Positions 1 to 11,034 of a DNA stretch of 64,000 nt are shown one piece after another. Below the pieces are notes generated by a model. It worked only from the letters and a program-made list of their open reading frames with translations, was not told where the DNA came from and searched no databases. A program made the translations under genes and the position numbers. The DNA lies in contig JBBABB010000001.1 in assembly GCA_041657885.1 (NCBI GenBank), positions 1,094-65,093 of the forward strand, read 5' to 3'. Each line of letters opens with the position of its first letter. Positions within the stretch are counted from its first letter, which is position 1. Source of the stretch: Minisyncoccota bacterium. GTDB lineage: Bacteria; Patescibacteriota; Minisyncoccia; Phycocordibacterales; UBA9973.

Positions 1-1067
1 TCTTCTTCTATATCTAACATTTCAAAAAACTTTGTTGCCAATTCTTTCGGCATAATATATTCGCTTAATGTTGACGAAAGTTGTCGTTCCAGTTCTTCGC
101 CTCGTATGCACGGTTCAAAACATTTTTGCGTTTTAGATTTCTTTGAGCAGTGATAATAAGTATAAAAATGTTTATTCCCGTTCTTTTGTCGTTTTATTTT
201 TATCTCTCCAGTAATTCCCATACCACACGAACCACAAGAGAGAAGTCCACAAAATGGTCTTGGGTTAGCTTCCTTTTTTGGTTTGCGACCCTTGCCTCGT
301 AAAATAGCATTTGCTTTATCAAAAAGTTCTTTGGAAATAATCGGCTCATGCTTGCCCTCGTATATTTCGCCTGCGTGGCGAAAATGTCCGTAATAAATAG
401 GGTTGCTAATAATGTGCGATATTCGTGAAATATGTACACGATTATTATTTTTTGATTTTACATTTCCATTTTCTAAAACTTTTGCGAGGTCTTCAAGTCT
501 GACATTTCCCGTTGCATAAAGTTCAAATATTTTTTTCACGAGTTTTGCGTTTTTCTGATGAATAGCAATTTTCTTAATATTGGAATTATTTATATATCCA
601 AATGGAGCAAGTCCGGGATAGTCGCCATTTCGTGCTTTCTGTCGTAGTCCGCGGGCGGTATTCTCGCTTAATTGGCGGACATATTCATTTGCCATTCCTA
701 ACTCAATAGACATCATTAACACATTATCATTTGGATAATGACTTTGTCCGTGTGTTTGAATATGTTGGATAATTCCTTGTTGCAAAAGCCATTGTATTTT
801 TCCACTATCTACTGGATTGCGTGATAAGCGGTCAATTTTCCAGCAAACAATTCCTTGTGCTTCACCATTTTGTATACGCGAAAGCATATTGTTAAAAACT
901 GGACGGCCGGGGATTTTTGCTGACCGCTTTTCTATAAATTCATCAGAAATATAAATATTTTCTCGTTTGGCTAGTTCACGAAGTTCGGCGAGTTGTGATT
1001 CAATAGAGAGGATTTGTTTATCCTCAACGTCAGTGCTTTTGCGAGCATATAAAAAGTATTTAAGCAT
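1..1067 (-). CDS. Large serine recombinase (resolvase/invertase N-domain, recombinase domain and zinc beta-ribbon); 5' part only, continues past the window edge
   Basis: Minus-strand translation from ATG at 1067-1065 reads MLKYFLYARKSTDVEDKQILSIESQ...GIVCWKIDRLSRN...CGLLSCGSCG..YYHCSKK. This gives the catalytic Ser motif (YARKST), the DRLSR motif and a C-terminal Cys4 ribbon. It is absent from the ORF track because it has no in-window stop. Confidence 0.8.
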   Translation of the reverse strand, partial: MLKYFLYARKSTDVEDKQILSIESQLAELRELAKRENIYISDEFIEKRSAKIPGRPVFNNMLSRIQNGEAQGIVCWKIDRLSRNPVDSGKIQWLLQQGIIQHIQTHGQSHYPNDNVLMMSIELGMANEYVRQLSENTARGLRQKARNGDYPGLAPFGYINNSNIKKIAIHQKNAKLVKKIFELYATGNVRLEDLAKVLENGNVKSKNNNRVHISRISHIISNPIYYGHFRHAGEIYEGKHEPIISKELFDKANAILRGKGRKPKKEANPRPFCGLLSCGSCGMGITGEIKIKRQKNGNKHFYTYYHCSKKSKTQKCFEPCIRGEELERQLSSTLSEYIMPKELATKFFEMLDIEE

Positions 1068-1127
1068 AGTTGTATTATACCACAACTGATGACATAAAGC
1101 ACAACTATAGAGTATAATCTGTGTATA

Positions 1128-1331
1128 ATGAATGAATCAGAAAAACTGGGCGAAAATCTAAAACGTATTAGAACTGCAAAAGGTATCTCGCAAGGCGAGA
1201 TTGGCCGAATACTTGAAGTAGATAAAAGTTTTATAAGTAATATTGAAAATGGTAAAACAAATCCCACTCTTTCAACGATTGCAAAAATAGCAAAAGCGGT
1301 CGGGGTGTCGGTCGGGGAGTTAATGAAATAG
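1128..1331 (+). CDS. XRE/Cro-C1 family helix-turn-helix transcriptional regulator
   Basis: 67 aa. LKRIRTAKGISQGEIGRILEVDKSFISNIENGKTNPTLSTIAKIAKAVGVSVGEL is a canonical HTH_3 motif. The stop lies 2 nt before the next ORF, implying an operon. Confidence 0.8.
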   Translation: MNESEKLGENLKRIRTAKGISQGEIGRILEVDKSFISNIENGKTNPTLSTIAKIAKAVGVSVGELMK

Positions 1332-1333
1332 TT

Positions 1334-2923
1334 ATGAAAATAAAAGAAATTAAAATTATCAACAATACAGAAACTTGTGCTGATATAAACCTAATTCTAG
1401 GTGCTAACAACACGGGTAAAAGTACTTTTATAAGAGAGCTTGAAGAAGCAAGTAAAACCTGTCAAATTGGGTTAAAGAACAAATGGATAACAGGCGTAAA
1501 ATTTGAGGCGTCTGGAATCAAGACTAGATTTGATAGTTTATTTCCCGGAGTATCTGCCTTTGCTGTTTACGAGGGAACAGAACAAGAAATAAATAGTATT
1601 GGAGGAGCAAATATTTTTAGTTCAAACTGGAATAATGAAGTTTTTCAAGCAATGAAGGCAAAGCTGGATACTTCTGAAACATATGAAGCTATAACTCATC
1701 CATCAAAAGATAGGGATTGGCATTATTTTAGTTTTGTTAATAATATGTCTGTTTCTATGGAAAACTGTGATTCAAGATTATCAGGACCATTTTTTACTCA
1801 AATAAACAGGGTGGATGAAAATTATAAAGATATAGTTCATTACTTTTATTCACAAAACTCTCTTTTTCAAAAAATATCAGATCATATTAAAGATGTTTTT
1901 GGTATAGAAATTATTTTTGACGACTTAGAGCAAGGACAAAAAGATATCCGCTTAGCACCTGATGTTGCTAAACCTGCTTCTTTTCCAAACCGTAGAAATG
2001 AAGGTCAGTTTTGGGCAGAACATTCTCCGATATTAGCTTCTCAAGGTGATGGCTTGAAAGCTTACTTGAAAATATTATACGCTCTCTTTAATCCCGCAAA
2101 GGATGTGATCATAATTGATGAACCTGAAGCATTTTTACATTCACCTCAAAGAAGAAGTTTAGGTAAATTCATTGCCGATAACGCATCTAGTGGTAAGCAA
2201 ATATTTATTTCTACTCATGATAGTGAATTTTTAAGAGGAGTTCTCACAAATACTACCTGTGATACACAAGTAGTTCATTTAAAAGAGAAACTAGGTAAAA
2301 GAAGCTATACAGTTAATAGAACACCTTCAAATACCAGAACGAGAAATAATAATGAACTCATGCTTAATTCTTATTTTAATAAATTAACCGTATTATGCGA
2401 AGCCGAAGACGATAGAGTAATTTATCAATATGCAAGTCAATCTTTTTTCCCTACACCGACGGTTGATATTCATTTTCTTGGACTCAATGCTAAAAGTGAT
2501 TTGTTTCTAATATTCAAACATTTACAGAGTTTAGAAATTGAAACCGTAGGAATAGTGGATATCGATGTTCTTTATTCAGGAGAATGTTTAGGGCTTTCTC
2601 TTAACCAAACAGAAAAAAATTTAATAGAGGAGGTGAAAAACCTCTTAAATGCTTTATCACAAGCAGACAGAGATATATTTAAGGAAAATGGGGTTGTCTC
2701 TCTGTCGTCCAATGCTTCACTTAGTCAGAAGGTTCAAGATGCAATACAAATAGCGAAGAAATACAAAATTTTTATTGTACCCATAGGAGAACTTGAGAGT
2801 TGGCTAGATACACCAACCGCATCAAAAAGAAAAGTGCAGGCTATGAAAAATGAGATCGACACAAGTCCAACGACTACAAAAAAATCAACCTTAAAAAAAT
2901 TCATAGGAGAAGTTATTTCTTAA
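1334..2923 (+). CDS. OLD-family / PARIS-like ABC-type ATPase fused to a Toprim nuclease (putative anti-phage or abortive-infection effector)
   Basis: Walker A ILGANNTGKST, Walker B VIIIDEPEAFLHSPQ and H-loop ISTHDSEF. The C-terminal half carries Toprim-like acidic motifs (VLCEAEDD, GIVDIDVLYSGE). It is coupled to the upstream HTH gene. Confidence 0.6.
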   Translation: MKIKEIKIINNTETCADINLILGANNTGKSTFIRELEEASKTCQIGLKNKWITGVKFEASGIKTRFDSLFPGVSAFAVYEGTEQEINSIGGANIFSSNWNNEVFQAMKAKLDTSETYEAITHPSKDRDWHYFSFVNNMSVSMENCDSRLSGPFFTQINRVDENYKDIVHYFYSQNSLFQKISDHIKDVFGIEIIFDDLEQGQKDIRLAPDVAKPASFPNRRNEGQFWAEHSPILASQGDGLKAYLKILYALFNPAKDVIIIDEPEAFLHSPQRRSLGKFIADNASSGKQIFISTHDSEFLRGVLTNTTCDTQVVHLKEKLGKRSYTVNRTPSNTRTRNNNELMLNSYFNKLTVLCEAEDDRVIYQYASQSFFPTPTVDIHFLGLNAKSDLFLIFKHLQSLEIETVGIVDIDVLYSGECLGLSLNQTEKNLIEEVKNLLNALSQADRDIFKENGVVSLSSNASLSQKVQDAIQIAKKYKIFIVPIGELESWLDTPTASKRKVQAMKNEIDTSPTTTKKSTLKKFIGEVIS

Positions 2924-2942
2924 AATAAAACTACAAAGGGAG

Positions 2943-2966
2943 TTTGCCGATTCGCAAATCGGCAAA
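2943..2966 (+). terminator. Stem-loop (9-bp stem, CGCA loop) immediately after the OLD-like gene stop
   Basis: tttgccgatt cgca aatcggcaaa forms a perfect hairpin. There is no strong U-tract, so the terminator assignment is tentative. Confidence 0.35.
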
Positions 2967-3263
2967 GGTTAACACGCGCATGGGCGTGGGTGGGTGAGAA
3001 GCGAATACTTGGAGCTTCGCAAGGCCGGAGGCTGGCGAGCCGAGGCGGGGTCGCAGGATTTTTCCGCAGAAAAATACCTGTGACAATGACTAATACGTAC
3101 GACCTCCCCTCCAAAAAACTCTCCCTCCAAAAAATCTTGGGCTTTTGAATTTTTGAACCTCACCCTAAAAAAACGCGAAGCGTCCGGAAACCCTTTGCCA
3201 CACTACGCAGAGCTTCGCTCTGCTCGCGAAAATTTTTCTGAAAAACCCTTGAGTTTGATTGCG

Positions 3264-3496
3264 GAGTATCTTTTAAAATCAGCTAGAACCTATTTTAGTA
3301 AAAATTGTTCCTAAAAACCTATCAAACGAACTAATGCGCACGCTCCGCGTGCCTCTTAACTTTAAACTAATTACCACGCTCTACTAATGTGCTAATTCCA
3401 AATGGACTCAGAAAATGGAAACAAATATTTTGGGGATTAGGATTTCCATTTTCCTCGACTGTATCTTTTGGCGAGATTTCAAATTCTGCCCGCAGG
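3264..3496. repeat. Left copy of a ~233-bp inverted repeat bracketing the R-M module
   Basis: The reverse complement of 8829-9060 matches this segment with about 5 differences (1 indel, ~4 substitutions). It contains internal hairpins (gcacgc..gcgtgc; aaaatggaaa..tttccatttt). Confidence 0.85.
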
Positions 3497-3572
3497 AGGG
3501 GTTTGGGGAGGAATGCGGGCGAAATTTATTGGTAGGCTATGGAAAGAATGCAAAAAATGTTAGAATTACTCT

Positions 3573-4412
3573 GTGGAATATATAAACAAAGTTTATTTTA
3601 AAGATGCTAGAAAAATGACAGAATTACCAGACAATTCTGTACAGTTAATTGTAACTAGTCCTCCTTATTTCAATATAAAAGATTATTCTCTTGACGGATA
3701 TCAAAAAAATAAAAAAGCTCAAAAAGCAACTGGTCAAATTGGTGATATCGCAGATTATGAAAAATACATTGATGAAATGGTTTTGGTTTGGAAAGAATGT
3801 GAGCGTGTATTAAAACCGAATGGAAAGTTAATAATTAATACACCACTTATGCCGATGTTAAAAAAAAATCTGATCACTCATTACAACAGGCACATTTTTA
3901 ATATTAACAACGACATAGAACACTCAATATTAAAAAAAACTAATTTGTTTTTAATGGATGTTTATTTTTGGAATAGAACGAATCCGAGCAAAAAACTAAT
4001 GTTCGGTAGCTATCCATATCCGCGAAATTTTTATGCTCAAAATACAACAGAGTTTATAACTGTGTTTGTGAAAGACGGAATTCCAGAAAATAATCTCCCA
4101 GCAAAAATTAAAGATAGAAGTAAATTGAGCCAAAAAGAATGGGTAGAATTTACTAAGCAAATTTGGAATATTCCAATCCCCGGCAAAGGCGATTTGGCTT
4201 TTGGAGAACATTCAGCACTAATGCCAGAAGAAATTGTTAGGCGTTGTGTTAGATTATTTACCTTTGTTGAAGATGTTGTCTTAGACCCATTTGCAGGATC
4301 AGGGACTACTTTAAAAGTAGCAAAGGAATTAGAAAGAAATTTTGTCGGGTATGAGATTTCTAAAAGTTATGAGGATATTATAAAATTAAAGTTGCGACCT
4401 AAATTATTTTAA
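3573..4412 (+). CDS. DNA methyltransferase, beta-class amino-MTase (N6-adenine or N4-cytosine); M subunit 1 of a Type II R-M system
   Basis: Motif IV TSPPY lies N-terminal to motif I DPFAGSGTT, which is the beta permutation. The likely true start is ATG at 3615 (MTELPDNS), since the track start at 3573 is a GTG. Confidence 0.85.
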   Translation: MEYINKVYFKDARKMTELPDNSVQLIVTSPPYFNIKDYSLDGYQKNKKAQKATGQIGDIADYEKYIDEMVLVWKECERVLKPNGKLIINTPLMPMLKKNLITHYNRHIFNINNDIEHSILKKTNLFLMDVYFWNRTNPSKKLMFGSYPYPRNFYAQNTTEFITVFVKDGIPENNLPAKIKDRSKLSQKEWVEFTKQIWNIPIPGKGDLAFGEHSALMPEEIVRRCVRLFTFVEDVVLDPFAGSGTTLKVAKELERNFVGYEISKSYEDIIKLKLRPKLF

Positions 4413-4415
4413 TTT

Positions 4416-5198
4416 ATGCTTAAAATTAACAAAATCTATAATTTAGACTGCTTCGACTTTTTAAGTAAAGTTGATGATTCGTCAATCAATCTTGCTGTTA
4501 TTGATCCCCCTTATAATATGAGCAAGGCAGATTGGGATACATTCAAATCACATAAAGACTTTTTGGATTTTACTTACAAATGGATAGACGCATTATTACC
4601 GAAATTAACACAAAATGGAAGTTTGTATATTTTTAACACACCATTTAACTCAGCATATATTTTACAATATCTTACTTCAAAAAATATGGTTTTCCAAAAT
4701 TGGATTACTTGGGACAAAAGAGATGGGCTTGGAACATCAAAAAGAAAATATAGCAATGGACAAGAATCAATACTATTTTTCACAAAATCTGATAAACATA
4801 TTTTTAATTACAACGATATAAGAGTTCCTTATGAATCCACAGACAGAATAGAACACGCCGTTAAAAAAGGAATCTTAAAAAATGGTGAGAGATGGTTTCC
4901 TAACCCGAACGGAAGATTTTGTGGAGAAGTTTGGCACATCACTAGTGAACGACACAAAAGAAAAATAAATGGGAAAGTTCAAAAAATGGAACACTTAACA
5001 CCTAAGCCGTTGGATTTAATTGAAAGAATTGTAAAAGCAAGTTCTAAAAAAGGAGATTTAGTTTTGGATTGCTTCGTCGGTAGCGGAACGACAGCAGTTG
5101 CTTCAAAAATACTAGGTAGAAATTTTTTGTGTTCCGATATAGACAAAAAATATGTTAAATTAGCAGAAAAAAATTTATATTTATATGCCGATAAATAA
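4416..5198 (+). CDS. Second beta-class amino DNA methyltransferase (M subunit 2)
   Basis: IDPPYN (motif IV) is followed C-terminally by DCFVGSGTTAVAS (motif I). It starts 3 nt after the M1 stop. Confidence 0.85.
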   Translation: MLKINKIYNLDCFDFLSKVDDSSINLAVIDPPYNMSKADWDTFKSHKDFLDFTYKWIDALLPKLTQNGSLYIFNTPFNSAYILQYLTSKNMVFQNWITWDKRDGLGTSKRKYSNGQESILFFTKSDKHIFNYNDIRVPYESTDRIEHAVKKGILKNGERWFPNPNGRFCGEVWHITSERHKRKINGKVQKMEHLTPKPLDLIERIVKASSKKGDLVLDCFVGSGTTAVASKILGRNFLCSDIDKKYVKLAEKNLYLYADK

Positions 5199-6441
5199 TA
5201 TCAATCAAGGAAATAAGGCACTAGAATTTATAGATTTTAGAATTAAAGACGACAAATATCGTGGTTCTCGTTCTTCGCAACATAACAGATATATCATGCA
5301 ACAAGTTGTAGATATATTAAAACTTTTTAATCAATATGCTCCAAATAAAATGCTTATGCCTATTCGTACGGCTGATATTTCAAAAAGACCACAAAATACA
5401 GCAGAGGAAGCTACATACGCTCAATTTTGTAATGACGCAAAAGAAAAAACAAAAGGCATAACAAGTAAAGAAGGAATAGGAACGCAAGATGCTATGAGAA
5501 AAAATTTATTTCCCGATTTGCACAGAATGGGACTTATTGTTAGGTATGATAAAGATAAAAAACCAACAGACCCATTTTCAAAACAAGGTGTTAAATATGT
5601 ATCGCTGAGTAATCAAGGACTAAAGTTGATAAAAGGGAAAACTATTCTTGAGCAATACTTTATATTTTCAAAAGGAATAGATAATTTACTTGGTGGTTAT
5701 ATTGACATTATTTTGGATATATTAAGAGATAAAGAGTATGGAATAGATAACCTAAACATTTTTGAATATATGTTTTTTGTTTCAGCAGTAGGAACGGAAA
5801 CAAGTTTTAACAAAAGCACAGATGAAGCAGTCGATTTAATAAAAGAATATAGAAATTTAACATCCACACAAAGAAAATCTGTAATTGAAACTTTAAAAGT
5901 TGAGCTAAATCCTAAAAAGTTTGCAGGAAATAAGACAAAGAAAAGAGATTTTCATAATTGGCATAATAAAGCCGTACAAGTATTTTATCTTCTAAATCAA
6001 ACAGTTTATTTTGAAGTCAGGGGCGATCAATTAGTTCTTAAGGGAGGAATAAATGGTTTTGCTGAAACAGCAATAATAAGCACAAGACTAGATAGATCAT
6101 TAAATGAGAAATACCAGTATTTTGTAAAAAATGAAATTGAAAAAGTAACGGGATTTGAACTTCATCATGTTGTTCCTTTGGCGTGGTCAGAAAGTATCCA
6201 CCATTTCAAATTGTTAGATAAATGGGAAAATATGGTTTATATAGATGCGTTTAGTCATGCAAAAATTACACAAAACAGAAACCGTAATGTAATTATAGAT
6301 TTTGTGAGTGATGACATGACACTAACCGATCATTCAAAAAATCAGATATATTTAAAAGTTCAAGATAATATTGCATATAAACCAACAAACAAGACAGTGA
6401 TGAAAAAGTATAATAATGAATTGCTGAATACGGTGAAATAA
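5185..6441 (+). CDS. Putative restriction endonuclease with a C-terminal HNH-like motif
   Basis: It overlaps the M2 stop by 14 nt. The C-terminus ELHHVVPLAWSE...NMVYIDAFSHAKIT has an HNH-like His-His...Asn...His spacing. The N-terminus shows no recognisable similarity. Confidence 0.5.
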   Translation: MPINNINQGNKALEFIDFRIKDDKYRGSRSSQHNRYIMQQVVDILKLFNQYAPNKMLMPIRTADISKRPQNTAEEATYAQFCNDAKEKTKGITSKEGIGTQDAMRKNLFPDLHRMGLIVRYDKDKKPTDPFSKQGVKYVSLSNQGLKLIKGKTILEQYFIFSKGIDNLLGGYIDIILDILRDKEYGIDNLNIFEYMFFVSAVGTETSFNKSTDEAVDLIKEYRNLTSTQRKSVIETLKVELNPKKFAGNKTKKRDFHNWHNKAVQVFYLLNQTVYFEVRGDQLVLKGGINGFAETAIISTRLDRSLNEKYQYFVKNEIEKVTGFELHHVVPLAWSESIHHFKLLDKWENMVYIDAFSHAKITQNRNRNVIIDFVSDDMTLTDHSKNQIYLKVQDNIAYKPTNKTVMKKYNNELLNTVK

Positions 6442-6452
6442 AAAATCCCCTA

Positions 6453-6798
6453 AAATACTAGTGGGAAAGGTAAATGGCTAACTACTACTTGTGCTTTGTC
6501 TTATCGACAAGCACAAAGGTTTTCGCGTCGCCTCCGTAAGGAGGAACGCGCTCACCTTTAGTTAGAGTAATCTCGCGTTTCGTTCCCGAGACTTGATATT
6601 GCCCTGACTTAGGAGCAGTGCCACCTGTTTTGATTTTAGTCATAACAGTTATTTGCTTAATTCTAATAATCTAGGGGCTTATCGAACCTCTCACCCCCTC
6701 GTTTAAGCTTCGTAGAAGCACAAACGAGGGGGAGGAGGATAAGTTGATCCCATAGAGAATAAAATTCGGCACCTAAGTTTTTCCCACTAGTATTTTAA
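6453..6798. repeat. MITE-like or structured-RNA element bounded by perfect 16-bp terminal inverted repeats (TAAAATACTAGTGGGA)
   Basis: 6453-6468 is the exact reverse complement of 6783-6798. The interior has nested hairpins including GNRA-type loops (cctcc-gtaa-ggagg; ccccctcgttt...aaacgaggggg) and no ORF of 60 aa or more. Confidence 0.5.
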
Positions 6799-6892
6799 AG
6801 GACTTTAATTTTTGAATTATATACTTATTTTAAAATTTTACAATTTCAAGAAAGTGCTTTCTCGTGCGCGAACGTGAGAATGGGTTAAGTGT

Positions 6893-6901
6893 GCTATAAT
6901 A
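6893..6901 (+). promoter_or_regulatory. Extended -10 promoter (TGcTATAAT) upstream of the zinc-ribbon ORF
   Basis: tgctataat matches TGnTATAAT. It overlaps the 3' end of a recurrent 30-nt motif. Confidence 0.35.
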
Positions 6902-6929
6902 TACTTACAACTGAATAGTTCGATCAAGA

Positions 6930-7367
6930 GTGGTGGTAGAGAATTGGCTCGATGACCCCACAGCAACCTGCTTCGGTAAGGTGCTAAATCCAACCAGACA
7001 CGAAAGTGTCAGGAAAGATGTGTTTGTGCCTAGTCCGCACAAAAACTCTTTCCTCTTTATTAGAGGAATTTTTTATTTTATGAAGAAAATACCAGAAGGT
7101 TTAGTTAGGTGTGAAGTATGTGGAGAGTATAAAGGTGAGGTAAAAGAGAAAGACTTAAATTGGGGCGACTCTTGTTTTTACAAAGCAGAAGTAGAAAAGA
7201 GTGAAGAATACCTCTCTGTGTCTTGTCTTTGCGACGGCATCTTATGTCATAAGTGTAAGAAAAATAAAATTCATAGGCCTATATCAAATTCTTATGATGA
7301 GATTGATAATGACATTGGTCATTGGCCGTGGTTCACCGGAATGATGCCATGTAAAGAGTGTAAATAA
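6930..7367 (+). CDS. Small cysteine-rich zinc-ribbon protein; likely real start at ATG ~7080 (MKKIPEGL...)
   Basis: CEVCG...SCLCDGILCHKCKK...PCKECK gives three CxxC pairs. The upstream 150 nt of the track ORF looks like a structured 5' UTR rather than coding sequence. Confidence 0.4.
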   Translation: MVVENWLDDPTATCFGKVLNPTRHESVRKDVFVPSPHKNSFLFIRGIFYFMKKIPEGLVRCEVCGEYKGEVKEKDLNWGDSCFYKAEVEKSEEYLSVSCLCDGILCHKCKKNKIHRPISNSYDEIDNDIGHWPWFTGMMPCKECK

Positions 7368-7379
7368 TAAAAAATCATT

Positions 7380-7610
7380 ATGAAAAATATAGAAGAATAC
7401 AAAACAACCAGTGAGTGGTATAAAGATGCTCGAAGTGAAGGATATAATTTCCCCGTCTCAATGTGCCACGGATTAGATGTTGGACAAAGAAAATTAAAAT
7501 TAAGTTTTGCAGACGTTTTTCAATTGTTTGTAAAAAATAATATAATTATTCAAGTCAATGATAGGTTTATTTATAATTTGGAGGGATATCTCGCTATCAA
7601 AAACAACTAG
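7380..7610 (+). CDS. Hypothetical small protein (76 aa)
   Basis: An ORF only 13 nt after the previous stop, with no recognisable motif. Confidence 0.3.
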   Translation: MKNIEEYKTTSEWYKDARSEGYNFPVSMCHGLDVGQRKLKLSFADVFQLFVKNNIIIQVNDRFIYNLEGYLAIKNN

Positions 7611-7644
7611 GATTAAATTATAAAAGAATGATAAAATAAAATAT

Positions 7645-8337
7645 ATGCCCGACGACCAAAACGCATCTCAAAATCCAATTTCCGAAGAAAACCCTTCACC
7701 TACAAGCCCCCAAGAGTCCATAGAGCAAGGCACTGAAAACACAGCACATTCTGAACCTTCCGTTGCACCTCTTGATGCCCTAGAAAGCTCACCGAACGAC
7801 TTTTCAGTGAAAAGTAATGATATACCACCCTCAAATTCTACCCCTACGGAAGCAGTAAATGAGCCAGAAACTCTAGAAAAACAAGTCCCAAATGAACCTA
7901 ACCCCGAGCCAGTTTCTGAACCCATAGAATCTCCTGAACCCGAAACGGCTCAAATACCGGTATCTGAGCCGTTGAACTCTACGAGCGAGCCGTTAGGCGA
8001 GCAAGTAGAATTCCCAGAAACTAAAACAGAGACAAAACCAACCCCCGAAGTAAAACCTGAACCAGTAGAAACTAACCCCATTCTTGTTTCAACTAAACCC
8101 TCCCAAAAAAATTTATGGCAAAGATTTCTAAGTAAAATACAAATTGGAAAAAGAAAAAAGCTGGATCGTGTTATGACTTTATTTCTTAAACAATCTAAAA
8201 TCACAAACGACGAAGTCGAGAAATTTCTTCATGTCTCGGATGCAACTGCAACTAGATACCTTTCACAATTGGAGAAAGAAGGAAAAATAAAACAAGTTGG
8301 TAAAATTGGAAAAGCAGTTTCGTATTCCAGAATTTAA
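7645..8337 (+). CDS. Protein with a Pro/Glu/Ser-rich disordered N-terminal half and a C-terminal winged-HTH domain
   Basis: About 150 aa of low-complexity PEPV/SEP repeats precede LDRVMTLFLKQSKITNDEVEKFLHVSDATATRYLSQLEKEGKIKQVGKIGKAVSYSRI, a DeoR/MarR-like wHTH. Confidence 0.5.
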   Translation: MPDDQNASQNPISEENPSPTSPQESIEQGTENTAHSEPSVAPLDALESSPNDFSVKSNDIPPSNSTPTEAVNEPETLEKQVPNEPNPEPVSEPIESPEPETAQIPVSEPLNSTSEPLGEQVEFPETKTETKPTPEVKPEPVETNPILVSTKPSQKNLWQRFLSKIQIGKRKKLDRVMTLFLKQSKITNDEVEKFLHVSDATATRYLSQLEKEGKIKQVGKIGKAVSYSRI

Positions 8338-8418
8338 TTTTCGGGGAGTCGCCGTCCTTCTTTTCCTCACGGCGGTTTAGTGCGCGAACGGGAGGGTGGG
8401 TCAAGCACGAGTATTTCC

Positions 8419-8730
8419 GCCTCGGGCATTTCCGCTAGGGTGTCCATGACTAAAGGACGAGTGCCGCCCAGCTGGTGCAATACTAAAATCTAAAGGCGAA
8501 AGCTATACACACTAAACACGGATATGAATAAAGTAGAGTGGGGATGGCGAGGGCAGACTGCTGGTAATCCAGCAGAGCCCGACCCGGGGAGAGGAAACTT
8601 CCTCTCCCCAAGAAGTTGCGGGCAATCTAGTGAACGGCTCATTTACTGGTATTTGAGCCGTTCGGATATTTTGCTTGCCCGCTCATAGGCATCTAGGCAC
8701 TCGTAGCCCTAGCGGAAATGCCCGAGGCGG
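8419..8730. repeat. Second MITE-like or structured element, closed by a perfect 24-bp inverted repeat
   Basis: ccgcctcgggcatttccgctaggg (8420-8443) is the exact reverse complement of 8706-8729. The interior holds hairpins such as gggagagga-aactt-tcctctccc. Confidence 0.5.
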
Positions 8731-8781
8731 ATGCCGAGGGTGCACCTCAAAACTTTAAATAACCACCAAAGTAGAAAAATG

Positions 8782-8791
8782 GTATAATGCC
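8782..8791 (+). promoter_or_regulatory. Extended -10 promoter (TGgTATAAT) reading into the right inverted repeat
   Basis: tggtataatg is a perfect extended -10. A transcript would cover 8829-9060, which is complementary to the plus-strand RNA of the left repeat. Confidence 0.35.
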
Positions 8792-8828
8792 CGAGACAAT
8801 GATTTTTGTATTTTGATTTTGAGTTTTT

Positions 8829-9060
8829 CCTGCGGGCAGAATTTGAAATCTCGCCAAAAGATATAGCCGAGGAAAATGGAAATCCTAATCCCCAAAATTT
8901 TGTTTCCATTTTCCGAGTCCATTTGGAATTAGCACATTAGTAGAGCGTGGTAATTAGTTTAAAGTTAAGAGGCACGCGGAGCGTGCGCATTAGTTCGTTT
9001 GATAGGTTTTTAGGAACAATTTTTACTAAAATAGGTTCTAGCTGATTTTAAAAGATACTC
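8829..9060. repeat. Right copy of the ~233-bp inverted repeat
   Basis: See the left copy at 3264-3496. Its outer end lies 6 bp from the cysK-like stop codon. Confidence 0.85.
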
Positions 9061-9066
9061 ATTAAA

Positions 9067-10068
9067 TTAAATATAAAAATTTGCTAATTCTTGAGTTATT
9101 TTTTCATCTAAAAGTTCCTTTTCAGCCATCCAGTCATCATTAAAGGCGTGGGTAAGATAACTTTCACCACTGTCGCCAATAATTAAGACCATATTTTTTA
9201 TTTTTTCTGAAATCGGTTCTCCATTAATAAATTTCATCGCATAATAAAGAACCATTCCACTTGAATCTCCAACTAGCAATCCTTTCTGTTCAGCAAAAAA
9301 GCGCATAGTATTAAATGCTTCCTTATCCGCAACATAATCATGTTTATCAAAAATAGAAGTATTAATATTTTTAGGTGGAATAGCTCCGGCTGGATATCCT
9401 GGGCCGGAAATAAAATAACCATGTCCGCGTGGGGAGAAATGACTGGAACCTTTTGGCTCTAGGGCGATTACCTTAGTATGTCCATGTTCTTTTATATATC
9501 GGCCAGATCCAGATAGGGAACTACCAGTACCGATTGTTCCAACTAAATAATCAGCATCAGGTACTTGTTCAAAAATTTCTTTACCCAAAGTGTTGTAGTA
9601 GCCCTTGGGGTTTTCAGGGTTGTCGTACTGGTCAAGATTGATTCCGCCTTTTTCTTCAGCCAGTCGCTTAGCAGTTTTGCGACGGACATCAACCAAATGC
9701 CCACCCTTTGGGTCTTCTTCGTCACTACAGAAATGTAATTTGCCGCCATAGGCCTTGATTGACCTAAGCTTATCGGCTGGAGCATGTTTGTCAACGATAG
9801 CGGTGAATTTATATCCCCGAGCGGCTGACAGCATTGCTAGGGCCTTGGCTGTATTTCCAGAAGAAGATTCAAAAATTTCCATTCCTTTTTTTAATTGGCC
9901 AGATTGTTCGGCTGCATTCATTAAGACTTGAGCAGTCCTATCTTTAAAACTTCCAGCTGGGTTAAAATATTCCAGCTTTAAATAAATCTTCCAATCCGAC
10001 CTAGTGGTCGATATTTCAAGCATTGGGGTTTCCCCGATGAGTTCATCAATACTTTTATTAATAGTCAT
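9067..10068 (-). CDS. cysK: PLP-dependent cysteine synthase / cystathionine beta-synthase family enzyme (fold type II)
   Basis: SFKDR lysine motif, GNTAKALA, and a Gly-rich loop GTIGTGSSLSG. Confidence 0.75.
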   Translation of the reverse strand: MTINKSIDELIGETPMLEISTTRSDWKIYLKLEYFNPAGSFKDRTAQVLMNAAEQSGQLKKGMEIFESSSGNTAKALAMLSAARGYKFTAIVDKHAPADKLRSIKAYGGKLHFCSDEEDPKGGHLVDVRRKTAKRLAEEKGGINLDQYDNPENPKGYYNTLGKEIFEQVPDADYLVGTIGTGSSLSGSGRYIKEHGHTKVIALEPKGSSHFSPRGHGYFISGPGYPAGAIPPKNINTSIFDKHDYVADKEAFNTMRFFAEQKGLLVGDSSGMVLYYAMKFINGEPISEKIKNMVLIIGDSGESYLTHAFNDDWMAEKELLDEKITQELANFYI

Positions 10069-10119: not shown

Positions 10120-11034
10120 GTGATGGACAAAGAAAAAATTCAGAAAGAAATAGAAGAACTTGAGGCACAAACGGCGCAAGGGAATTTTTGGGATGATAAA
10201 ATTTCTGCACAAGCGACAATCAAACGGATTGCATTTTTGAAAGATGAAATTCTAGGAAATCAAAAATATGACAAAGGGAATTGCATACTTTCAATTCTTT
10301 CAGGCGCTGGGGGTGATGATGCCGAAGATTTTTCGGCGATGTTGCTTCGAATGTATACAAAATATTTTGAGAGAAAAGGTTGGTCTTGGGAGGTAATCCA
10401 TGAAAATAAAAATGACAACGATGGATATCGCAATGTTTCTGTTGAAGTTTCTTCTCCCCCTGCGAAGGGGGAGTGGCCGAAGGTCGAGGGGGTCTATGGC
10501 ACTTTAAAAAATGAATCAGGTGTACATCGATTAGTTCGAATATCTCCATTTAATGCGAATGCCAAAAGGCACACTTCTTTTTCTCTCGTTGAAGTGATTC
10601 CAGAATTTGCGAAAGATGATAGCGCCATAGAAATCCCCCCAAATGACCTTCGGATTGAGCTTTCAAAGTCAGGTGGCCCCGGTGGGCAAAATGTAAACAA
10701 ACGCGAGACCGCTGTCAGGGTAGTCCATTTGCCAACCAATCTGTCTGTTCATGTAACATCAGAGCGTTCTCAAGAACAAAACAAAGAAAAAGCCATTGAA
10801 ATGCTAAAAGGTAAACTTTTCAAGAAAAGAGAAGATGATAAAAAGAGAGAAAAAGACGGAATGTCCATCTCAAAGACGACAGATATAGAATGGGGAAGTC
10901 AAATTCGCTCTTATGTCCTTCATCCATATAAAATGGTCAAAGACCACCGCACGGGAGTTGAAATTAATAATGTTGACTCTGTTCTTTTGGATGGTCAGAT
11001 AGATGAATTTATTGAAACAGAACGCAATTTGTGA
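10120..11034 (+). CDS. prfB: Peptide chain release factor 2, with a short N-domain and no programmed frameshift
   Basis: SPF tripeptide, GGQ motif (GGPGGQNVNK) and GVHRLVRISPF. The N-terminal region is contiguous in a single frame. Confidence 0.85.
   Translation: MMDKEKIQKEIEELEAQTAQGNFWDDKISAQATIKRIAFLKDEILGNQKYDKGNCILSILSGAGGDDAEDFSAMLLRMYTKYFERKGWSWEVIHENKNDNDGYRNVSVEVSSPPAKGEWPKVEGVYGTLKNESGVHRLVRISPFNANAKRHTSFSLVEVIPEFAKDDSAIEIPPNDLRIELSKSGGPGGQNVNKRETAVRVVHLPTNLSVHVTSERSQEQNKEKAIEMLKGKLFKKREDDKKREKDGMSISKTTDIEWGSQIRSYVLHPYKMVKDHRTGVEINNVDSVLLDGQIDEFIETERNL
10450..10490 (+). repeat. GC-rich palindromic element (CTCCCCC-TGCGAA-GGGGGAG) inserted in-frame within prfB
   Basis: It encodes SSPPAKGEWPKVE between the conserved VEV and GVYGTLK..GVHRLVR segments. 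The hairpin core is 10454-10473. Confidence 0.6.

Follow-up and report, generated by a model that had tools for sequence, protein, structure and literature searches.

The window, by which we denote the entire 64-kb stretch of DNA analysed here, stems from a metagenome-assembled genome (MAG) of Candidatus Paceibacterota within the candidate phyla radiation (CPR). Its left part contains the gene of a large serine recombinase (LSR), a regulator gene, a candidate defence nuclease, a Type II restriction-modification (R-M) module, a riboswitch followed by three small genes and, as the subject of this text, a pair of long inverted repeats that encloses the R-M module and the riboswitch cluster. We consider it likely that the repeats are a duplicated module, consisting of the integrase gene tail and the attachment site of a serine-integrase island, and that their paired layout is lineage-wide. 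Protein families were assigned with Pfam, NCBIfam, PADLOC, PHROGs and PDB, RNA families with Rfam 15. The features on which this reading is built are the following, with the basis of each assignment in brackets:

3264-3497, plus strand: left repeat, element A, type A (repeat search, blastn, family alignment)
3264-3314, plus strand: last 17 LSR codons and stop, left repeat (reading frame; stop at 3312-3314)
3339-3345 and 3375-3381, plus strand: ACGCTC boxes, left repeat (family alignment)
3411-3421/3443-3453, plus strand: hairpin arms, left repeat (compensated stem variants in the family)
3470-3491, plus strand: invariant 22-mer, left repeat (family alignment)
3488-3520, plus strand: conserved terminator-like hairpin of the type-A flank, GCCCGC-AGGAGGGGTTTGGGGAGGAAT-GCGGGC (inner junction of the left repeat)
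3090-3263, plus strand: P*, an LSR 3'-end pseudogene fragment of ~58 codons, ~175 nt (reading frame runs on into the left repeat)
8828-9060, minus strand: right repeat, element B, type B, P' arm and right end of the island (repeat search, blastn)
8380-8827, minus strand: B-domain, a GC-rich conserved structured region of ~450 nt after the right repeat (alignment of relatives)
9061-10068, minus strand: chromosomal flank, a 6-nt spacer and a PLP-dependent gene of the cysteine-synthase family, cysK-like (Pfam PALP, 1.6e-62)

The two repeats are 98.29% identical over 234 nt (3264-3497 versus 9060-8828; blastn against the window, E 9e-117) and constitute by far the largest repeat of the window in a self-blast. 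The alignment consists of two arms, 3264-3434/8890-9060 (171 nt, 98%) and 3413-3497/8828-8912 (85 nt), shifted against each other by a 1-nt indel. The copies differ by three mismatches and one indel (3410/8914 A/G; 3426 T/-; 3458/8867 A/G; 3461/8864 G/A); the outer 146 nt are identical, the first variant is found at repeat position 147, and all four differences fall within the inner 88 nt. A blastn search of the window with 3264-3497 returns one other copy only, all remaining matches being 14-30 nt long and at chance level. The strain was also assembled independently with megahit (ERZ27247322), and this assembly recovers each copy with its own variants, on contigs corresponding to 3269-7092 (L005) and 6952-9055 (L006), both 100% identical, and the pair is therefore not an assembly artefact. 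The near-identical inverted repeats described in an earlier, sequence-only reading of this DNA are hence borne out by two assemblies, as is, by its coordinates, the 6-nt gap between the right repeat and the stop codon of the PALP/cysK-like gene (9067-10068).

In each unit, the last 17 LSR codons and the stop precede a conserved non-coding stretch of 183 nt. The assignment of the first 51 nt of each repeat as LSR coding sequence follows from two reading frames. The pseudogene fragment P* reads in frame 0 into the left repeat, from ...REASGNPLPHYAELRSARENFSEKPLSLIAE (also written ...KPLSLIAE) directly into YLLKSARTYFSKNCS and the stop, and in the related locus L035 an intact LSR open reading frame (ORF) of 519 aa likewise ends inside the unit. 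The native tail of the LSR, as encoded by the unit, is ...LIAEYLLKSARTYFSKNCS, and a C-terminal motif, ARTYFxxN, is conserved across LSR lineages. P* is 90% identical at the nucleotide level to the 3' end of the resident LSR gene, in inverted orientation; the latter is located at 8241-8405 of L003, a contig of the same strain from another assembly that is 100% identical to positions 1-3190 of the window (3190 nt). The resident LSR matches the same sequence up to ...KPLSLIAE and is then fused to an antisense tRNA-Thr(CGU) (L003 8172-8244), the fusion point being this same GAG, precisely where the repeat would begin. The non-coding part of the unit comprises two ACGCTC boxes, a 12-bp hairpin and a near-invariant block of ~40 nt. 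The hairpin shows at least four compensated stem variants across the family (stem variants counted separately), and its G-U intermediates favour the inward-reading strand. From this arrangement, the outer edge of the unit appears to be the crossover point of the LSR, and P* together with the left repeat appears to be an unrecombined attP-like site (P*-O-P').

Island boundaries and attachment sites

The mobile unit comprises ~9.48 kb. Its left end, 423 nt outside the window, adjoins a tRNA-Thr 3' end, and its right end is position 9060. The left repeat is located 3.7 kb inside the island, and only the right repeat coincides with an island end, so that the two repeats are not the ends of a cassette as had been proposed. 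The empty site is found in five contigs (L094, L100 and L095-L097) whose cysK-like protein is 90% identical. In all five, 6 nt separate the cysK stop from the 3' end of tRNA-Thr(CGU), and synteny is kept on both sides, with prfB-ftsE-ftsX-pyrG on the one and a tRNA cluster, a 213-aa ORF, gatA, gatC and ligA on the other. The suggestion that the block is mobile and absent from relatives is thereby confirmed, with the missing DNA being larger than 3264-9060. The suggested link to a large serine recombinase also holds, the LSR being a protein of 531 aa on L003 whose gene is located within the island. Four sites can be compared:

attB (empty site), L094 (also L100, L095-97), tRNA-Thr/cysK spacer: TTTATT-GAG-CCATCC
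right junction (B-O-P'), window 9054-9066: TTTAAT-GAG-TATCTT
left junction (P-O-B'), L003, tRNA-Thr end, position 8244: GATTGCG-GAG-CCGAAGG
internal attP-like copy (P*-O-P'), window 3255-3270: GATTGCG-GAG-TATCTT

All four sites have the GAG core in common. At the right end, the junction between repeat and chromosome is found at GAG 9058-9060, where TAA-TTTAAT-GAG-TATC corresponds to TAA-TTTATT-GAG-CCATCC(tRNA) in the empty site of L094. The analogous core in the L034/L012 lineage is TGGCTCC. Nine further junctions between an LSR 3' end and a tRNA 3' end are found in related loci (tRNAs Thr, Glu, Asn, Gln in three cases, Ser and Ala), and insertion at tRNA 3' ends appears to be a habit of this family of LSR islands. 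Most probably, the island was inserted by its own LSR in the gap that separates the tRNA-Thr(CGU) 3' end from the stop codon of the cysK-like gene. The right repeat is then the P' arm of the island at the chromosome junction, the integrase 3' end at the other island end is fused to the tRNA, and the left repeat is an internal, inverted and unrecombined attP-like copy behind the LSR pseudogene tail.

The same chromosomal site is also seen in L098 (10970-11500; cysK-like protein 86% identical), where a unit and a B-domain directly follow the cysK stop. This unit is preceded by only 13 nt of integrase-tail sequence, and LSR, the three small genes and tRNA-Thr are missing; the locus suggests a decayed island remnant and a site that may have been used repeatedly. 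A small GIY-YIG ORF is located in the tRNA cluster just outside the left island junction (L003 7393-7647, left of the window) and is absent from L094. On the other side of the island, the homologue of release factor 2 (prfB; window 10120-11034) has only 304 aa, and its match to the family model starts at position 110. Its N-terminal domain is seemingly missing, with no evident upstream frameshift segment, and the orthologues of relatives have 293-303 aa.

The family of units and the B-domain

Copies of the unit were collected by scanning three sequence collections for the 22-mer GGCGAGATTTCAAATTCTGCCC, which is invariant in the first three copies compared, namely the window pair and L007, a relative's contig that was found via the 76-aa protein described below and begins within a unit homologue. 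The scan returned 16 loci in species-representative genomes, all of them MAGs of the Nomurabacteria/Paceibacterota type with up to three copies per MAG, 66 loci in JGI metagenomes and no match in viral contigs. In total, 86 copies of ~230 nt with defined ends were obtained from CPR genomes and metagenomes. The inner flank of a copy is almost always one of two. Type A (49 of 86 copies), represented by the left copy of the window, consists of the GCCCGC/GCGGGC hairpin listed above, usually a T-run, and then a helix-turn-helix (HTH) gene and variable cargo. Type B (30 of 86), represented by the right copy, consists of an A-rich stretch, the GC-rich domain of ~450 nt and then the convergent winged-helix (wHTH) gene of the trio, as we call the three small genes behind the riboswitch.

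Inward-facing pairs of an A and a B copy, with the variable cargo, the trio and the B-domain enclosed between them, are found in six contigs or contig pairs: the window, DATKGV01 (L013+L022), L051, L075, L066+L030 and L045+L035. In five of the six pairs the two copies are 98-100% identical (window 98.3%; L075 100% over 238 nt; L066/L030 99.1% over 230 nt; L045/L035 and L051 100% in the stretches that could be compared). Between genomes, units are 65-90% identical and do not cluster by type A or B. The A(+)...B(-) layout is common to at least six lineages whose units differ by up to 35%, and the duplication is therefore old. As copies within a genome are near-identical nonetheless, recurrent gene conversion between the inverted copies is implied, by which the two copies would be kept near-identical within each genome. 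The inward-facing A/B pair is, on comparison of these loci, a conserved design of a tRNA-targeting LSR island family in Nomurabacteria/Paceibacterota.

The B-domain (8380-8827) is single-copy in the window and always found in the same position after type-B units. It is 82-89% identical in L012, L016, L017, L022 and L026. An alignment of 20 sequences predicts 87 pairs, 14 of them with compensatory changes, and contains an invariant long-range helix of ~29 bp (8416-8440/8707-8731). The label "MITE-like" (after miniature inverted-repeat transposable elements) that had been given to 8340-8827 does not fit this lineage-conserved domain with its fixed position and covarying helices. Neither the repeat unit nor the B-domain matches an Rfam family at the gathering threshold or at E<=5, and within 2900-9200 only an S-adenosylmethionine (SAM) riboswitch rises above noise. 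The domain could act as a large, new non-coding RNA carried by mobile elements, or else work at the DNA level, for instance as an origin. We note that a 26-nt direct repeat, GTGCGCGAACG.GAG..TGGGT.AAG, occurs at 6864-6889 and 8380-8405 (85% identical), the first copy shortly upstream of the promoter region of the riboswitch and the second at the far end of the structured domain, and may be a shared regulatory or binding site.

Orientation of the segment and competing explanations

The flank combinations of the units differ between near-identical strains, in a comparison drawn from different short-read assemblies. In one strain, the same outer flank (0.6-3.1 kb, 99.6-100% identical) with its unit leads into the B flank in L012/L068 and into the A flank in L082/L046; the LSR-side flank of the same strain is joined to A in L027 and L034. 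Among the copies located just upstream of the start of the LSR gene, 12 are of type A and 2 of type B (L041, L057), and intact junctions from LSR through the unit to B are found in L035 and L075. The cargo segment may hence exist in two orientations relative to integrase and chromosome. Two routes could lead there, namely homologous recombination between the inverted repeats and the use of one or the other inverted attP-like site (LSR-tail/unit-B or P*/unit-A) for integration. With regard to the latter route, the known directionality of LSRs argues against the enzyme acting on the internal site. We regard isomerisation as plausible but unproven and give it even chances. The earlier proposal that the segment can invert is plausible in view of both flank combinations in near-identical strains, with mis-joins over the 223-nt repeat as a possible source of error.

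In the same lineage, an insertion sequence (IS) with an rve-type transposase tail is located between the wHTH gene and the structured domain (L082 9033-10323, L068 1-93, L012 6597-6646). The contigs of this IS-bearing lineage diverge at the IS end, which complicates the reading of isomers from assemblies; the far end of the alternative isomer on L082, when traced, is an IS-associated jump into unrelated DNA. The contig ends of ERZ27247322 were considered as a sign of inverted orientation and rejected, as they fall exactly at the last 141-mer common to both repeat copies, where the assembly merely breaks.

Several points weigh against the reading of the repeats as attachment-site modules. The left island end is located outside the window and rests on L003, a contig of another assembly. 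Excision, inversion in situ and activity of the LSR are predictions of the model, which is drawn from assembled sequences. Short-read assemblers can mis-join over a 223-nt exact repeat, L082 also jumps at an IS copy, and the same-strain assembly ERZ27247322, which breaks at the repeat, is orientation-neutral. The pair L013/L022 is only 76% identical, and homogenisation is accordingly not universal. The origin of the inverted duplication is not accounted for by the island model. The canonical rules of LSRs (attP x attB; attL x attR with a directionality factor) give, to our knowledge, no role to an internal inverted attP.

Four other explanations of the pair have to be considered. The repeats might bound a dedicated phase-variable segment, such that the serine recombinase flips the 5.3-kb R-M/trio segment in the manner of Hin or Gin. 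The arrangement is suggestive, as the inverted repeats are long, a serine recombinase gene lies 2.2 kb away, each repeat carries the recombinase core and a P' half-site, the copies are homogenised within genomes, and both flank combinations occur in near-identical strains, with the copies beside the LSR gene sometimes of type B. The recombinase, however, is a 531-aa enzyme of the integrase type, and the product demonstrated here is insertion at a tRNA. The two candidate sites have unlike outer halves, the P* fragment in one and chromosomal flank in the other, and are attP-like and attL-like, respectively, a pairing that LSRs are not known to recombine, and the segment contains no obvious orientation-dependent promoter or gene fusion. 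We therefore consider a dedicated switch unlikely. A slightly lower probability is assigned to the possibility that the left copy is a relic of a second, decayed LSR island, nested or accreted, in which case the pair would be functionless and its identity due to a recent event. The truncated LSR pseudogene in front of the left copy, only 90% identical to the resident LSR, would fit such a history, as would the GC-rich small repeats and unrelated spacer around this copy and the tendency of family islands to accumulate (the pair in L075 lies between two LSR genes). Yet the same layout with the same inner junctions recurs in the at least six lineages described above, with copies 98-100% identical within genomes, and the hairpin flank of type A is conserved in 49 copies; both observations are difficult to reconcile with a relic.

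The repeats might also be small-RNA genes or RNA leaders, the duplication then providing two copies of an RNA gene, as the sequence-only reading had considered on the ground that the repeats are highly structured. The latter is not the case for the repeat as a whole, with fold energies that are ordinary on both strands (z = -0.19 and -1.35), and RNAalifold on 42 unit copies yields little consensus structure (the alignment shifts the hairpin arms). What stands of the proposal is the one internal hairpin kept with compensatory changes and with G-U intermediates that favour the inward-reading strand, to which may be added that the type-A copy ends in a terminator-like hairpin with T-run and that the type-B copy runs on into the covarying 450-nt domain. 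Against an RNA gene, the 5' 51 nt are protein-coding, Rfam gives no match, and a promoter/terminator scan returned no more sites than in shuffled controls, with no promoter preceding the unit. The conserved hairpin may simply be the terminator of the integrase gene. Overall, an RNA gene is improbable. The remaining explanation takes the pair for the terminal inverted repeats of a transposon, composite or non-autonomous, with the R-M module on board. It draws on the long near-identical repeats that bracket accessory genes, and can be rejected with near certainty: domain searches find no transposase between or beside the repeats, the flanks (...GATTGCG before the left repeat, ATTAAAT after the right) show no target-site duplication, the empty site reveals an insert that extends 3.7 kb past the left repeat to the tRNA, and each repeat begins with integrase coding sequence.

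Returning to the serine-integrase island, the layout may tentatively be extended to a CPR-specific class of "double-headed" islands. In these, inverted copies of the integrase C-terminus and attP would flank the integrase gene on both sides, the island would integrate at tRNA 3' ends via either site or flip by recombination between the two, and the cargo and the ~450-nt structured domain would be carried in either orientation, with backbone genes, possibly including an excision factor, gated by the SAM riboswitch. We consider this extension possible, though less probable than not.

Island genes, cargo and known systems

Apart from the repeats and the B-domain, the island contains the following features:

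1-1067 (runs off the window start), minus strand: LSR, 5' two-thirds in the window (L003)
1128-1331, plus strand: XRE-type HTH regulator, divergent from the LSR gene (Pfam HTH_31/HTH_3 on L003/L004; PADLOC HTH and control-protein models)
1334-2923, plus strand: OLD-like ABC-ATPase/TOPRIM protein, candidate defence nuclease (Pfam AAA_21 1.8e-15, weak OLD-like TOPRIM match)
3573-4412 and 4416-5198, plus strand: Type II R-M methyltransferases (Pfam N6_N4_Mtase 8.6e-47 and 2.7e-59; PADLOC MTase_II 8.5e-88 and 3.4e-69)
5185-6441, plus strand: Type II restriction enzyme, full length (PADLOC REase_II, E 4.6e-123)
6442-6863, no strand: spacer with a 27-nt inverted repeat (6442-6468/6780-6806) and a 52-aa ORF (6485-6643, minus strand) (repeat search, ORF list)
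6918-7024, plus strand: SAM-I riboswitch (Rfam RF00162, 56.1 bits; gathering score 44.4)
7080-7367, plus strand: Cys-rich 95-aa ORF (island backbone, trio)
7380-7610, plus strand: 76-aa ORF (island backbone, trio)
7645-8337, plus strand: 230-aa protein with C-terminal winged helix (island backbone, trio)

The LSR consists of Resolvase, Recombinase and Zn_ribbon_recom domains (PF00239, PF07508, PF13408), with a YARKST motif at its N-terminus. Homologues of the HTH regulator adjoin the unit in many related loci. The OLD-like protein matches the PADLOC models NsnB, AriA, ATPase-Toprim and Old and is not a recombinase. The GC-rich stretch of 168 nt between its gene and the LSR pseudogene tail (2924-3091) recurs as partial copies (74-90% identical) at several related loci, among them insertions inside the structured domain of L017 and L098/L099; it looks like a small dispersed hairpin element. 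The region 3573-6441 constitutes, by its profile matches, a Type II R-M cargo. The two methyltransferases named in the sequence-only reading are found as described, and its HNH nuclease candidate (5185-6441) is instead the full-length restriction enzyme. The spacer downstream has no other copy in the window or in ~100 related loci. Its interpretation as a MITE (6442-6806) was rejected, as no second copy was found anywhere searched.

The riboswitch and the three genes behind it are 87-92% identical at the nucleotide level in L007-L011 (the counterpart of window 6918-7610 being L007 8008-8730), where they follow different cargo, and a wHTH homologue adjoins type-B copies in 25 loci. As this unit is kept in islands with quite different cargo, the riboswitch belongs to the backbone of a mobile element and not to a metabolic operon. 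A terminator-like hairpin (7050-7068) is located between the riboswitch and the 95-aa ORF. The three backbone proteins have no family match in Pfam, NCBIfam, PADLOC, PHROGs or PDB, and no directionality factor was identified. The slot between the type-A hairpin or HTH gene and the riboswitch cluster varies among relatives (L007 4073-6185; cargo regions of L013, L024 and L027) and contains Prok-E2/ThiF/BubE genes, an M78 peptidase with HTH, or other methyltransferases. From its varied content, the slot appears to behave like a hotspot for defence cargo.

A literature search on serine-recombinase islands in Patescibacteria returned nothing. The closest known systems are LSR elements such as those of phiC31, Bxb1, A118 and TP901-1, SCCmec with Ccr and Tn4451 with TnpX. 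The island shares with these the Resolvase, Recombinase and zinc-ribbon recombinase domains, precise insertion with a common core of 2-3 nt and no long direct repeats, the attB, attP, attL and attR sites as four hybrids, and the location of the integrase gene beside one end. It differs in that it targets the 3' ends of several different tRNA genes, that its attP is located within the last 17 codons of the integrase, such that integration replaces the protein tail, and that a second, inverted attP-like copy is held internally. It also differs in its CPR host and in that profile searches of the window find no phage, conjugation or transposition genes in the island. In mycobacteria, attB sites that overlap tRNA genes are reported for tyrosine integrases only and not for serine integrases (PMC10654092), and the tRNA target of the island is therefore unusual for a serine integrase.

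A second group of related systems are the tRNA islands of tyrosine integrases, namely P4-like and PICI-like (phage-inducible chromosomal island) satellites and the P2/P4 defence hotspots. These are likewise small islands at a tRNA 3' end that some close relatives have and others lack, with variable anti-phage cargo between conserved backbone parts (here R-M and the OLD-like ATPase; ThiF/E2-type and others in relatives). In contrast to these, the recombinase here is of the serine and not the tyrosine type, no direct repeats derive from the tRNA 3' end, and the backbone combines a SAM riboswitch with three small genes and a large, structured non-coding domain. A third group are replicons with two isomers, such as the yeast 2-micron plasmid (FLP/FRT), the G segment of phage Mu (Gin) and the flip-flop of chloroplast inverted repeats. 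Common to these and the island are a recombinase site inside long inverted repeats, homogenised copies and the occurrence of both flank combinations among near-identical strains. Unlike these, the element here is integrated in the chromosome, its isomers are putative, and its recombinase is an LSR of the integrase type, for which the known rules do not provide for recombination between two P-type sites. Taken together, the element is a known kind, a serine-integrase defence island, with an unusual conserved architecture: a tRNA 3'-end target, an attP in the last integrase codons and a homogenised inverted second att copy.

Mobile elements of CPR bacteria are poorly described, and serine integrases are in demand for genome engineering. 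With the present assignment, the repeat pair becomes a set of precise, testable att sites (attB, attP, attL, attR and a GAG core) for a CPR serine integrase, in which the location of attP in the last codons means that the protein tail changes on integration. The inverted second att copy, being conserved and homogenised, points to a route by which two isomers of a small island could arise. The SAM riboswitch and the large structured domain without Rfam counterpart provide new leads on the regulation of such islands, and the defence cargo of these tiny genomes occupies a swappable slot between conserved island parts.

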